A DNA stretch of 64,000 bases, from the NCBI GenBank assembly GCA_964016885.1, contig OZ024749.1, forward strand, positions 30,504,001 to 30,568,000. Direction: 5' to 3'. Position 1 is the first letter of the stretch. Each line of letters begins with the position of its first letter. Of the stretch, positions 18,499 through 53,601 are shown piece by piece. The position numbers and the translations under genes were made by a program. The DNA is from Eledone cirrhosa. Its lineage: Eukaryota. The notes below the pieces were generated by a model that was not told the DNA's origin, ran no database searches, and was given only the letters and a program-made list of their open reading frames with translations.

Positions 18499-18692
18499 AA
18501 GAACGAGTAGGACCCCGACGGCTGAGCTCAAGCCGTTTCAACAGCTAATTCTGGACCAGAATTAGCCGTAGAAACGGCTTGAGCTCAGACGTCGGGGTCC
18601 TACTCGTTCCTATTACCCACTCTACTACCCTAAGTATTGAATACTTTGGTACGTTATGGTCCACATGGTTCCTTACCACATTTCCTTCGTTA
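18499..18692. mobile_element. Short fold-back element family F1 in (TA)n (orientation opposite to the other copies)
   Basis: ~140-bp arm plus ~55-bp inverted arm, both ends in (TA)n. Confidence 0.85.
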
Positions 18693-19497
18693 TATATATA
18701 TATATATATATATACACCCACACACACATACACACACACACATACACACACATACACACACACACACACACACACACACACATATATATATATATATATA
18801 TATATATAAATGGTGTTTCAAAAGTCAGATATCATTTTAGATGTAAATATTACCAAAACTACAAAGTCCTGAACATCGAGATTGAACACGCTTAATGTTG
18901 AGCCGCATAAAATCTATTCTTCAAACCTTGTCAATATTATGACACTAACTCATAATATATATATTAATACCAACCTTGCGATCAAGCCATTGTCCAAGTA
19001 TGGGAGACACACAAATGATATCAAATCTTATTAAACCACTGTAATAAATTAACTATGAATTATTACTTTGTGTAAGCAAAAATAGGATAGTTTGGTGTGG
19101 GACTACACTCTTATATTAATTGATATAAATTCAGAGATCCGTGCCATTGTTGATCATACGTGAGATATGTATGAAAAGAAATGGTTCCCTTCAGTCATGA
19201 CTGGCACTATTTGAATGACTGGCTCCATATTTTATGGTTGCCTTCCCAACGTCACAGATGGGAAAACACAAAAGCCAATACAGCTTAGCATCTGTGTGGA
19301 ACCAACTAATGTTTTTCCCAACTGAGTGATCTGCAGCCATGTGAAATAAAGTGTCTTACTGAAGTTCACAACACGCCACGCCACCCGGTTCGAACATCGA
19401 ACCCACGATCGTAAGATCATCAGTACCAATTGATTCACCACTCAACCACTCGTCTTAGAAATTAGAGGCCTTGTGCTAAATGTGGAAACAATTATAG

Positions 19498-20110
19498 TGT
19501 GGATTGGCAATACCGGTAGAGGGTCGGACGCCATGCTATGCAGCATAGAGTTACGGTCCTTTATGATCTGAGTTCAAATCCCGCAGAGGTTAACTTTGCC
19601 TTTCCTCCTTACGGGGGTCGATAAAATAAAGTACCAGCCACGCACAGGGGTTGATTTAATCGACTGTCCCCTCCCGCAAATTACTGGCCTTGTGCCTATA
19701 CTAGAAATCATTATAATGTGGATTAGCATAATCGGTAGAGGGTCGGACGCCATGTTTTGCAGCGTAGAGTTACGGCCCTTTACGTTCTGAGTTCAAATCC
19801 CGCCGAAGTTAAATTTGCCCTTCATCCTTACGGGGTCGATAAAATAAAGTACCAGTAATGCACTGAGGTACTTGCTGGTCTTGTGCCAAAAATAGAAACA
19901 TTTACAATACAATAGGTTAGAACAATGGCATTTGGCAGTATCGGTAGAGGGTCGGACGCCATGCTTTCCAGCATAGTTACGTCCCTTTACGATCTGAGTT
20001 CAAATCCCGCCGAGGTTGACTTTGCCTTTCATCCTTACGGGGTCGATAAAATATAGTACCAGTAATGCACTGGGTAATTGCTGGCCTTGTGCCTAAAGTA
20101 GAAACAATTA
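19498..20110 (+). mobile_element. Three head-to-tail SINE copies
   Basis: Direct similarity. Confidence 0.85.
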
Positions 20111-21299
20111 TTGAAGGCCTGATTAATTGGTTTTCAATGAAGGAATATTTAGTTTCAGGCGATAGCAGGAGGTTTGATGGAAAGTTTGATGATAATGCTG
20201 AAATATAAAGCGACAATGTAGAATCTTCGTTATCAGTTGAAATCAGAAATAGTAAAAGCCGTGTTGAAACTTTGAGGTATTTTTTTACAAAAAGTAGAAT
20301 ATTGTGGCTGTATTATGGCTATTTAAGATTATTGGTTGTGTTTCTATTTCTGTATTACTTGTATGTATTACTTGTATGTTGTCTTGCTTGTATGTTGCTA
20401 GATATGTAGTTGCATTCTAGAAAGATCCGGTGTTGTGCTGTTTCAAACTTGGTTGTGAGAGCACACTCCTTCTGGTACAATTGCACATATATAACTATAA
20501 CAAATATATGAGTGCTGTAGCACCATTGGTTCCAATGACGAGCATTTCAGTTGTTTGAACGGGAGAACTGCTTGCTATATGAGGTGAATCTAACTTAAAA
20601 GTGACCTAGCATTTCAGTGGCACGTGTGCCAGTTAATATGTGACAAGGACAAGGCTCGCCTTTTGAATTATAAAAGAAACTGTAATTTTCGTCAGCTGAG
20701 TCGACTGGAGCAGCATGAAAATTGAACTCGTGATGTTACGATCGAGGGCCAAACACTCTTACAACTAAGCCACATGCATCCAGATTTATAATATAAATAA
20801 TATATAGCTGGAAGAGGGAAAGGTTGAATATCCAGGCTTACACACTCGACAATTAAAAAAGCAACTATAAAAAACATCGAAAAACATATTTAATGTTTCT
20901 CTACTCCAATTTATTTCCAATCTAGCTATGAAAACTTTTTATATAATGCTTTCTAAATCGATCAAGAATAATCAATACTAAAATCAGTTCATTAATGCTC
21001 GTTGTTAATGCATTAAAATATATATATGCCCAGGAATATGTTACCTCAGGAGATTCTTCAATTGGACGGCTTTTATTCATATTTGCTTTACGATTGCAAA
21101 CGGAACTCAATGATTAGTTAAGTAGCGATAGGTGACTCGACAAAATATTCAAATATATTTATTTTCATTTTAGAAGAATTATTTCGATGATATGATGATG
21201 GTCATTGTATTTATCGTAACATAAACTTTACCCACGTCTTTATTTCCCTTTCCATAGACTGAATGGTCGTAGATTATATATACGTTATATTTGTCTGTG

Positions 21300-21673
21300 T
21301 GTATATATATATATATACATATATTATATATATATATATATATATATATATATATATATATATACATATATATATATATATATATATATATATACATATT
21401 TATATATATATATATATATATATATTTATATATATATATATATATATATATATATATATATATATATATATATATATATATATATATATATATTTATATA
21501 TATATATATATATATATATATACATATACATATATATATATATATATATATATATACATATTTATATATATACATATATATATATACATATATATATATA
21601 TATATATACATATTTATATATATATATACATATATATATATATATATATATATATATATATATATATATATAT
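21300..21673. repeat. (TA)n microsatellite, representative of dozens of (TA)n/(CA)n/(GA)n tracts in the window
   Basis: Direct reading; source of the YI/CV/HT-repeat pseudo-ORFs. Confidence 0.95.
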
Positions 21674-50182: not shown

Positions 50183-50377
50183 CAATTCAGATTAGTTTTA
50201 TGAATAAATATTGACATACTCTGAAAAAAGGCAACATTAACGGTTGGAGCTTCCTTGAAATATGTATAATAAAATAAATATGGTTTTATGAATATAGTTT
50301 CCATTTGTTAATATATTGTATATATATATATATATATATATATATATATATATATATATATATATATATATATATAT

Positions 50378-50790
50378 CTAAGGCGGGTTAAATTCCCGAG
50401 ATCCATGGACGAGTTCTCTCCAGCGGTCTCTGTCTCTCATTATCGCTGCCATGTCTTGCGTCTCCAACAGACCAGTGTCTGTCCTTAGGGCATCAACATA
50501 CGTTAACCTTGGTCTTCTTCTTCTAGTGGGTCCATGTAGGGGCTCCCACAGGAGCACTGAGTGCAATGTCAACACTGGATGTCAGTGAGCATATCCAGCC
50601 AACCTCAGTCTCATCTGTGTCACTTTTGAGCTGACTTTTGGGATGCTCCCATACAGTTCTGAGTCCATCATCCACAGTGTATACCGACCAATGCTCAGAG
50701 CCATCCCCAGCACCCATCCACCATCCGAGCGAGCCTCCCGGCCAGTGTCCAAGTCCCAGACCCGCACAGCAGCACAGACTCCACTACAGC
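50378..50790 (-). pseudogene. RTE-like LINE 3' end (shorter copy at 39818-39932 on +)
   Basis: RLRLAGYAH...VLLWEPLHGPTRRRRPRLTYVDALRTDTG...MRDRDRWRELV. Confidence 0.78.
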
Positions 50791-53385
50791 ATATATATAT
50801 ATATATGTTTGTATAATATGTATATATTTGTGAAGACACCCACACACTTGCACATATATATGTGATTATATATCTACACATATATATATATATACATTTA
50901 TTTATATGTATGTGTGTATATATGTATATGTATACGTATATATATATATTATATATATATATCAATATATATATATATATATATCATCTGTCATATATAT
51001 TCCAATGTGATTATTGGTAAATTGTTAAGAGTAAAAAATAAATATGGTTCTCTTAAATACATCGCAATGTAAACATTTCAATTACTGGTGGATTTTAGCT
51101 GAGGCTAAAGAGTGATAATTATAGAGGAATACAGTTCAATGATATATGTGTACAGAGCCCCTTCGGTGGCATATATATATATATATAAATATATATATAA
51201 AAAACATGAGAAGAAAGAAGAATACTGCGTGGTTTGCACACATGTACATATATATATATAAATACACACACACACACGCGCGTGCTCACACACACACATA
51301 TATATATATATATATGTATCAACATTTCTTGATATCTTCTCAACAATGTTGTCCTATCTTCGAAAAAGGTAATGGCAGCGTCCATATGTAGATCCATTTA
51401 AATGCAATACTATAAAACATTAAGTGAACGTTTAATTCATGAAACTGTTAGAGGCAATCCGGCTGATTTTTTTTTTATGATGATGATGTTGGTCTCTGAG
51501 ATGTTCATAGAAACATAATGATCTTATGTACATGTATATGTATGTATGTATATATATATAATATGTATATATATATATATATATATATATATATATATAT
51601 ATATATATATATATATATATATATATATGAAAAAATGGGGAAAAGAATACTGCAGGTTGCATATGGATAACATGTAATAAAATGAGTCCCTCATCAGTGA
51701 TTTGCCGACGATCATAGATATTTCATATATATATATATATTTATATATATATATATATATATATATATATATATATATATATATATATATATATATATAT
51801 ATATATATATGTATATATATTTATATATATGTATAGATGTATATATATATATATATATATATATATATATATGTAAAAGTTCTATTTAAATTGTTGGGTT
51901 ACAACAAGCAAATATTTTTATATCTGATATAAAGCACTCAACACATAATTGGAGTAAAAATACGATATTAACAAATGGAAACTATATTTATAAAACCATA
52001 TTTATTTTATTATAATACACCTTACTATATATATATATATATATATATAGTAAAGTGTATTATTGGTTGTTTCAAACGGTCCAATAAATTTTTTATATAT
52101 ATATATATATATATATGCGCATATATATATATATGTGTGTGTGTGTGTGTGTGTCTATGTATATATATCTATGTATATAGATATGTATATAAATATAGAT
52201 ATATTCATTTATAGCTGTATATATAAAATATGTGTTACATGAGAGTGTTTGACACACACACACACACACACACACACACACACACACACACACACACACA
52301 CATGTATATATATACATATATTTATATATATATTTAAGTACTGCACTTTTACTATATACTTTTACAATGAGTAATCTCCTAGGTAAAAGCAACAATTATG
52401 ATAATTGCCGTTGAAAGCATATAAAGTTCCATTTCGTAAATAGACCGTTTAATATTCACTCCCTCGTATACATACATACATACATACATACATACATACA
52501 TACATTGATACATACACACATACATGATGGTTGCCCCCTCGTTATCGAGTATGGCCATTGCACGATATACTATTATTAATAATTATTAATTAGTTATATC
52601 ATGCAATGCCTCTGCGTGAAGATATTTTTTAAAGTGAGGAAAGCCTGTGCACTGAGCCAATCCCTCTCTCTGAGCGACAGTAGCTATAAACCGAAAAGAA
52701 GAAAAGATCAACATCATCGGTAGCTACTGAGCCGCAGGTTTTATATCGGAGTTATCCCACTTTCTTGAGTTGCCTTCTCCTAGAAGAATGCTCTGACAAA
52801 AGCTAGGGGTCCTTCACTCCCAGTGGTTTAACCGCGCGATCAGGTGTCCAGCTCGACTATTTCTATGTCTCCGCGCATATACACACACATGCACCCAAGT
52901 ATATACACATATACATACACATACATATGTACATGTGTATATACATATTTACACACTTTTGCATGGCCGTTGACTCTTATAAGTTCTTCCGCCCTTTGTC
53001 AGGTTTTGTTTTTTGTCCCGAAAGGTGCCCAAAATCACCCTCCTCACCAAGTAAACTTGGTGGGGTTGCCGGTTTAGTCGTCAACGACCCGACTAGGTTG
53101 CACTGGGTTACATGTTACCAGCAGCACTCAAGAGTGACCCGGCATACATTCATACATACATAATTACATACATACGTACATATATCCATATACATGTATA
53201 CATATATATATATATGTACACATTTACTCATATATGTATATATATATATACACACATATATAGATACATGCATACACACACACACACACACACACACACA
53301 TACACACACACACACACACACACACACACACACACACACACACACACACACACACACACACACACACATATATATATATATATAT

Positions 53386-53601
53386 AACGAAGGAAATGTG
53401 GTAAGGAACCAGGTGGACCATAACGCACCAAAGTACTCAATACTTAGGGTAGTAGAGTGGGTAATAGGAACAAGTACGACCCCGACGGCTGAGCTCAAGC
53501 CGTTTTGACCGCTAATTCTGGACTCCAAATTAGTCCAGAATTAGTCCAGAATTAGCCGTTGAAACGGCTTGAGCTCAGCCGTCGGGGTCTTACTTGTTCC
53601 T
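53386..53601. mobile_element. Fold-back element F1 in (TA)n
   Basis: Same family; centre contains a duplicated attagtccaga. Confidence 0.85.

Follow-up and report, generated by a model that had tools for sequence, protein, structure and literature searches.

Short palindromes of Eledone cirrhosa as probable minimal insertions of a Penelope-like element, and what their junctions suggest about inverted pLTRs

How does a short palindrome come to lie at many places in a genome with a different centre at most of them? The question is raised by a stretch of Eledone cirrhosa DNA of 64,000 nucleotides (GCA_964016885.1, contig OZ024749.1, positions 30,504,001 to 30,568,000), referred to below as the window, which holds six fold-back elements termed F1. 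The original prediction for this stretch described each of them as a long arm and a shorter inverted arm between (TA)n runs, and proposed that a cDNA reaches a fixed template end, snaps back, copies itself and resolves onto the target by TA microhomology, leaving a readable record of how inverted pseudo-long terminal repeats (pLTRs) form. Our analysis agrees that F1 is made by a retrotransposon, derived from a Penelope-like element (PLE), and that the family is such a record. For the route of formation we favour, on balance, another explanation: F1 copies would be the shortest insertions of a (TA)n-targeting Hydra-clade PLE, generated by two-ended (twin) target-primed reverse transcription.

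All six copies were found where they had been described, flanked by (TA)n. Each has a long arm of some 139 nt with a short arm inverted to it, and the centres of all six do differ (Table 1). Template positions are numbered such that window position 53524 is +1. The long arms are 92.6-94.7% identical to that of the copy at 49756, which served as reference; the RNA sense of the long arm's template corresponds to the + strand in the copy at 18501-18691 and to the - strand in the copy at 21674. In the latter, a 15-nt insert, in part templated on an arm, separates the two arms. At 48437 the short arm, which bears a T run, extends to -3 and contains sequence missing from the long arm. At 53386 two untemplated C residues follow +1, a candidate for cap copying, and an 11-nt re-copied unit is present on the short-arm side only.

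The 86-nt unique part of F1 has 4,202 exact matches in the 3.0-Gb genome, against none for the reversed control. Two such matches occur among about 22 long arms in the window and in two stretches of 110 kb and 120 kb, and scaling this ratio to the 4,202 matches gives a family of roughly 50,000 copies, as an order-of-magnitude estimate. The density was 13 long arms in the 110 kb near the window and two in the 120 kb elsewhere. Our core sample of 135 copies comprised the first 100 exact matches listed, all on one contig (C1), of which 99 were kept, and 36 bystander copies, which take in the six window copies and some older relatives; the sample is unselected for the centre, but 99 of its members require an intact unique part. 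The target is (TA)n: 128 of the 135 long arms begin in TA. The seven others were dropped, and in 93 of the remaining 128 a short arm precedes the next TA run. Another 104 two-armed copies, obtained by similarity searches, were used solely to count variants and junction bases, and about half of the resulting 194-copy variant set was picked by such searches. All centre statistics rest on the sampled copies. A few locus pairs (L180 and L182; the region of L217, L218 and L219; L283 and L284) share both centre and flank; they are likely segmental duplicates or duplicated haplotigs, and they raise the shared-centre counts in selected sets.

The parent element, which the original prediction had left to be found, was recovered as a PLE with a reverse transcriptase (RT) and, at the C terminus, a GIY-YIG domain. 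We reached it through F1 long arms, among the exact 86-nt matches, that extend past the supposed end into a common sequence, and a search with the sequence beyond the tail yielded long parent copies: at locus L119 arms of 1.2 kb flank RT and GIY-YIG coding sequence, and L161-L168 likewise consist of arms around an RT and GIY-YIG frame. A search guided by GIY-YIG led to other PLE families and not to the F1 parent, and the + strand with a poly(A) tail was rejected as the RNA, as the open reading frame (ORF) runs the other way. In its sense direction, opposite to the long arm of the original prediction, the parent begins with an upstream pLTR and F1 (+1 to +139); 92 nt further on, the ATG opens a frame of about 730 codons, which is followed by a 1.2-kb 3′ region and a second F1. 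F1 is accordingly both the 139 nt that end the 3′ pLTR and the start of the 231-nt 5′ untranslated region (UTR). The frame of L165, open for about 728 codons, carries an RT core and GIY-YIG-type motifs when read by eye, with DKT, RWR, a CxCX5C linker, CxxC and CxH. We compared these with the Hydra-clade marks defined in PMC8557442, namely DKT replacing DKG, an RWK motif, the CxCX5C linker, CxxC and CxH around conserved E and N, and a C-terminal endonuclease (EN); RWK reads RWR in the F1 parent. Atlas neighbours of the parent protein at 0.96-0.99 include GIY-YIG and RVT_1 clusters, while a Pfam scan reported no family in this protein, and likewise none in four frames of the window. Also found were the hallmarks of EN+ Penelope elements: a single ORF with RT and GIY-YIG, a partial tandem upstream pLTR, an inverted 5′-truncated arm and a one-sided tail of 80 nt. 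This PLE is almost certainly the parent of F1, and by its protein motifs it is of Hydra-clade type.

As described in PMC8557442, Hydra-clade PLEs, Hydra-1_Obim included, share with the F1 parent the single frame of about 730 codons with RT and C-terminal GIY-YIG, the motif set, the (TA)n target, and the inverted 5′-truncated copy with a tail at one end. They are usually shorter than 3 kb, whereas the F1 parent unit is about 3.6 kb with its 1.2-kb 3′ region. Their tail is 30-40 nt long, compared with 80 nt in F1, where it lies in the 5′ UTR, 93 nt before the ATG. A further difference is that roughly nine in ten F1 insertions stop at one boundary, at only about 200 bp. The hammerhead, stated in the same source to be universal in the clade, has no counterpart of canonical form here: the core CUGAnGA was absent from the sense strand of all three parent loci examined (L161, L164 and L165), which bear a partial resemblance only. 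The protein is, by its motifs, Hydra-type, yet the lack of a hammerhead departs from the description of the clade. An Rfam scan of the window returned no match at the gathering score, a weak test that also misses hammerhead-like cores present there, and folding of one F1 copy revealed nothing unusual (z 0.23 and 0.60).

Both outer ends of F1 are fixed. The short arm stops at a single site, as had been predicted: +61 in 82 of the 93 two-armed copies. The predicted TA microhomology was also seen, as both outer ends fall on a template TAT, 3 nt homologous to (TA)n. We refer to these sites as S (+59..61) and T (+139..141); other TA sites of the template are seldom used. Long copies have their 3′ end at S in six of seven cases and at T in one. 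Among 30 S ends of bystander copies, 21 are paired with a T end and none with an S end, seven are long and two are unpaired. Each F1 insertion is one T end plus one S end, and the PLE 'tail' is here the 80 nt between the two sites.

cDNA synthesis meets a fixed boundary as well, which we call the wall: 49 of the 128 long arms end at -4..+3. The others end at +4..+12 (31), further back (34) or at -24..-5 (one), and 13 continue into the longer parent, so that the 'fixed template end' of the original prediction is not the end of the element. Public contigs (three runs) show loose ends together with a step in depth at -4, +61 and +141; they stem from one sample, perhaps the source sample itself, and are possibly not independent, and strand-change joints are too rare in them to be informative. 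Near the wall there is a TATA-like box at -30, with initiator (Inr)-like hexamers at -4 and +1, as judged against consensus sequences; these motifs are clear in subfamilies B and C. The ORF-bearing segment of L169 starts at +2, with no upstream pLTR. TATA and Inr-like motifs have been reported in pLTRs (PMC3846280), and transcription of Penelope starts inside its pLTR (PMC2377424). Going by these sequence features, the wall is likely a transcription start, with +1 or -4 as the candidate capped RNA polymerase II (Pol II) start. Copying of the cap leaves an untemplated G in L1 and SVA (PMC4859970). In F1, C follows +1 in 11 of 28 free ends, compared with 19 of 107 at other positions (Fisher p 0.02), and six junctions read an A run, T and then an untemplated C; a cap-copied base at the wall is at most suggested by these counts. 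A runs of at least 5 nt past the wall occur in 17 of 109 arms with three template U and in none of 13 subfamily B arms, a contrast that, small count as it is, fits slippage of RT on the U run.

Are the two arms copies of each other? Their reach along the template argues against the self-copying originally predicted. By 3 nt or more, the short arm is ahead of the long arm in 27 of 93 copies and behind it in 33, and the remaining 33 are level (symmetry test of 27 against 33, p=0.52). We mapped 22 loci, and in the 11 long insertions among them that show both outer ends, the arm starting at S is the longer in nine, by up to kilobases, and the arm starting at T in two. At L185 the S arm goes to +1 and then jumps to +231, leaving the sequence +140..+231 on this arm only, and at L169 and L170 the T arm jumps into the ORF from +2 or +16. 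Either arm end behaves as a free, RNA-templated cDNA end. Given the pairing of S with T ends, the symmetry of the arms, the longer S arms of long insertions and the arm-specific jumps, we regard priming from both ends of the target as quite probable.

The snap-back route, in which one T-primed cDNA would hit the RNA end, fold back, copy itself to +61 and anneal to the target, its hairpin tip being then opened and repaired asymmetrically, is by comparison unlikely. It is the model of the original prediction, and it is close to the self-priming idea of PMC3846280, where palindromes at inverted PLE junctions are interpreted in this way. The two systems are alike in their head-to-head inverted pLTRs, junction palindromes and TATA and Inr-like pLTR motifs; the F1 junction statistics, by contrast, fit two independent cDNA ends on a sense template, with no need for an antisense one. 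The likeness of the two arms is what speaks for snap-back. They belong to the same subfamily in 80 of 83 unselected copies, ten variants seen in single copies are present in both arms of their copy, and 33 of the 93 centres are nearly symmetric, some of them perfect palindromes. That concordance points to a common source of the arms and is compatible with every model; it also led us to reject two RNAs of different subfamilies per insertion as the rule. Most of the variants that the original prediction described as copy-private turned out to be subfamily markers or recurrent: the 53386 motif marks subfamily B and the first 21674 motif subfamily C (both arms in 35 and 39 of 183 copies, respectively), the second 21674 variant is found in both arms of 31 of 194 copies, and the 30148 variant in both arms of two and in one arm only of ten. 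Since arm-shared variants are mostly subfamily markers, they do not separate snap-back from twin priming. The reach of the arms does weigh against snap-back, which survives only with frequent one-sided deletion, at times of kilobases, wherever the short arm outruns the long one; the +140..+231 segment of L185, present on the S arm only, likewise speaks against it. In addition, S is the ordinary 3′ end of long copies and hence behaves as a priming site, and folding of an S-primed first strand cannot give a tail.

The centre itself very probably forms at insertion, although remodelling immediately afterwards would look the same. As originally proposed, it is made anew each time: the 93 copies have 82 distinct centres. 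Joins comprise a 1-nt overlap (17 copies), an overlap of at least 2 nt (17), a blunt junction (7) or an insert (52), and of the 31 inserts of at least 4 nt, 10 are templated on the arms and three are A/T runs. We considered the alternative that the palindrome is born perfect or longer and that cruciform cleavage and repair reshape its centre afterwards, while gene conversion keeps the arms similar, or that F1 moves as a pre-formed, MITE-like DNA unit (miniature inverted-repeat transposable element). Repair of a break at the centre would yield end-joining features, and such traits are present, with at least 1 nt of microhomology in 34 of 93 junctions and the templated inserts just mentioned. 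Eight centres do recur, at two to four loci, and some copies lack most of both arms. Yet all recurring centres are simple joins with an insert of at most 2 nt, and for the complex centre at 21674 none of the 40 candidates scored, out of 1,130, was a match. Nor does centre loss rise with arm divergence (rho -0.08, p 0.47, n=76). Its median is 9 nt in the 21 copies without arm mismatch and 5 nt in the 27 with two or more, a split biased by the fewer sites that trimmed copies present to mismatch, and 20 of the 21 mismatch-free copies have distinct centres. Deletion from longer palindromes would moreover leave no wall, whereas the interval -24..-5 is almost empty of ends, and F1 belongs to an RT-encoding PLE whose centres gain RNA-derived jumps. 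This alternative is, in our view, improbable.

We assign an equally low probability to the possibility that priming is two-ended but the wall is a processing site (an atypical ribozyme cut, a 3′ splice site or a lariat) or a strong RT pause. The wall does read as a pyrimidine tract followed by AG, an intron end adjoins the hammerhead in D. virilis Penelope (PMC4209133), and F1 sits where Hydra elements have theirs, about 100-200 nt from the 3′ end (PMC8557442). F1 also keeps hairpins that resemble hammerhead parts, and ends form a second pile at +42, immediately past a GUC (p 0.001, post hoc and uncorrected, for 11 compatible ends), which may reflect an RT stall at the base of a hairpin or an atypical cut. 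Against such a site stand the lack of CUGAnGA on the sense strand of the three parent loci (the original prediction had asked whether a ribozyme site defines the end) and the many ends that take in bases upstream of the AG. By inspection, no shared upstream exon or leader follows the arm ends. For +42, which lies at the base of a hairpin, an RT stall suffices, and the untemplated C after the A run and T is again at odds with a processing site.

The sequence of events that we propose for F1 would run as follows. The GIY-YIG domain would cut both strands of (TA)n, one target 3′ end priming at T and the other at S, each with 3 nt of homology. Both cDNAs would extend to the 5′ end of the RNA, most likely the capped Pol II start at +1 or -4. 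There RT may undergo slippage on the U run, prime anew, copy the cap or switch to another RNA. Host end-joining would then unite the two free cDNA ends after trimming, and each event would yield a centre of its own; joins with microhomology, inserts that are templated, runs of A or T and jumps are found on either arm. The overlap of the arms would require strand displacement on one RNA, or two RNAs of the same source in a dimer.

Two known systems come close to this scheme. The Poseidon PLE PAc, predicted to act as a dimer, cuts and extends both strands of an AT-rich target in vitro, with two internal RT start sites that bound the tail (PMC11167929). Its start sites lie in the ORF, are said to be without target homology and are the same on both strands, whereas those of F1 have 3 nt of homology and are used as a T and S pair in each insertion. 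The steps after strand extension are left open in that account. In L1 twin priming, as proposed for F1, both target ends prime on RNA and two opposite cDNAs are joined (PMC12016303; 10.1101/2024.12.14.628481), but it accounts for about one in five L1 insertions, with a variable internal site and a median overlap of 12 bp. In F1, twin priming would be the rule, at two fixed sites, and the same stretch of at least 60 nt up to the RNA 5′ end would be covered by each cDNA.

Several points weigh against the two-ended reading. The different sites of the two F1 ends have no parallel in PAc, and small asymmetries could also arise from snap-back if the hairpin tip were at once opened and repaired asymmetrically. 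Of the nine long insertions with a longer S arm, four had been picked for carrying the ORF start, and 35 of the 128 long arms lack a short arm before the next TA run, including the 13 that extend far into the parent. The start site at the wall is deduced from motifs and end positions; in subfamily A the TATA-like box is degenerate, the cap signal, with C after +1 not above one third (p 0.31), is weak, and a start site does not explain the pile of ends at +42.

A more specific version is offered tentatively. F1 copies might be target-primed 'strong-stop' cDNAs, for which a PLE dimer primes from both ends on the 5′ pLTR copy of its own capped mRNA and reaches the cap after 60 or 140 nt; transfer to the identical sequence of the 3′ pLTR, comparable to the first strand transfer of LTR elements, would give a long or full-length insertion with partial-tandem pLTRs, and failed transfer, in about nine of ten cases, joined ends, that is, F1. 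The jumps of L185 and L169 from +1 or +2 imply that such cDNA ends can transfer, but no transfer scar at -1 or -5 was seen in 55 long arms, and priming on the 3′ copy of short transcripts from solo-pLTR promoters would also explain F1. If this version held, the tail, the inverted pLTR and the tandem pLTR would be outcomes of one cycle. Telomerase-like addition of repeats was rejected: re-copied units exist, but templated end-joining inserts account for them too.

MITEs of (TA)n microsatellites and foldback transposons are likewise short and of high copy number, with inverted repeats in a TA context, and automatic annotation could file F1 among them. We rejected this classification: one repeat of F1 is subterminal, lying 80 nt inside the end, F1 belongs to an RT element, and its centre is not passed on from copy to copy. 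Inverted 5′-truncated copies and one-sided tails are standard in PLEs (PMC8557442); how these tails and the inverted pLTRs arise is described as an open question (PMC8557442; PMC11167929), and genomic data have been interpreted in print as self-priming on antisense RNA (PMC3846280). The octopus Hydra family listed in PMC8557442, with a hammerhead and 2.5 kb, differs from the F1 parent as judged by its description. A literature search, with most subscription papers and Repbase/Dfam outside it, found no high-copy minimal PLE form with a start-site wall and no twin-priming reading of inverted PLE junctions. An Octopus vulgaris repeat annotation (PMC13282606) gives class totals, and its library and supplements may hold the F1 family. 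PLEs are the sister group of telomerase RT. The junctions of F1 are short, young and fully readable, bear fixed landmarks and number in the tens of thousands, so that counts can put the models to the test. In the 93 copies sampled, the evidence favours two fixed sites at which both target ends prime, and this connects the in vitro result with genomes. F1 also shows that an abundant MITE-like palindrome can be a by-product of a retrotransposon, and it supplies the genome with numerous potential hairpins and with promoter halves that face outward.

Table 1. F1 copies, the tail and related sequences in the window (window positions; arm limits in template numbering where a sign is given).
Feature	Position	Description
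F1 copy, subfamily A	18501-18691	Long (tailed) arm 18691-18556 (to +4); short arm 18556-18501 (from +2); arms overlap by 1 nt
F1 copy, subfamily C	21674-21877	Long arm 21674-21807 (to +6); short arm 21823-21877 (from +7)
F1 copy, subfamily D	30148-30343	Long arm 30148-30286 (to +1, plus A run); short arm 30292-30343 (from +10)
F1 copy, subfamily A	48437-48647	Long arm 48437-48568, cut back to +8; short arm 48584-48647
F1 copy, subfamily A	49756-49961	Long arm 49756-49899 (to -4); short arm 49899-49961 (from -2)
F1 copy, subfamily B	53386-53603	Long arm 53386-53524, ends exactly at +1; short arm 53543-53603
80-nt 'tail', shown in the 53386 copy	53386-53465	Between priming sites +59..61 and +139..141, one arm only
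Older relative	62688-62797	Centre without most of both arms
Older related family, ~80-84% identity	23718-23840	Same long-arm/short-arm layout in (TA)n

Older or collapsed relatives that were absent from the original prediction lie at 23718-23840, 33615-33651, 48663-48701 and 62688-62797. Elsewhere in the genome, L077 (also L131 and L132) and L153-L155 are tandem mini-arrays with units of 257-274 bp that join the start of the parent ORF back to the pLTR end, and the array of L077 is capped by an inverted short arm. We take them to be template jumps or deletion derivatives; a non-LTR retrozyme was rejected, since the unit is parent sequence without a hammerhead core. About 570-620 nt upstream of +1, the 3′ region of the parent (for example at L164) contains a short stretch in common with the abundant family of the window that resembles short interspersed elements (SINEs).

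Other PLE sequences are present in the window. A 562-codon frame at 56054-57742 (-), with an Asn/Gly-rich insert between RT and linker, represents another Hydra-type family, 41-44% identical to the F1 parent, and broken PLE-type RT fragments lie in two frames at 46192-47167 (-). A hammerhead-like motif with a canonical core at 48207-48312 (+), followed by about 50 nt and (TA)n, is probably the 3′ end of a further PLE family; at L012 a copy of this 3′ part starts near the expected cleavage site. At 42500-44060 (-), four hammerhead-like cores with a period of 469 bp (42588, 43057, 43526 and 43995) form a retrozyme-like tandem array, for which Rfam gave no report at the gathering score. Paired similar CUGAnGA...GAAA motifs on opposite strands at 14618-14753, 12820-13611 and 8449-8537 are possibly inverted insertions of other PLE families with an F1-like layout. 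Finally, a 356-bp repeat occurs at 11616-11971 and 59733-60088 in opposite orientation, with 96% identity.

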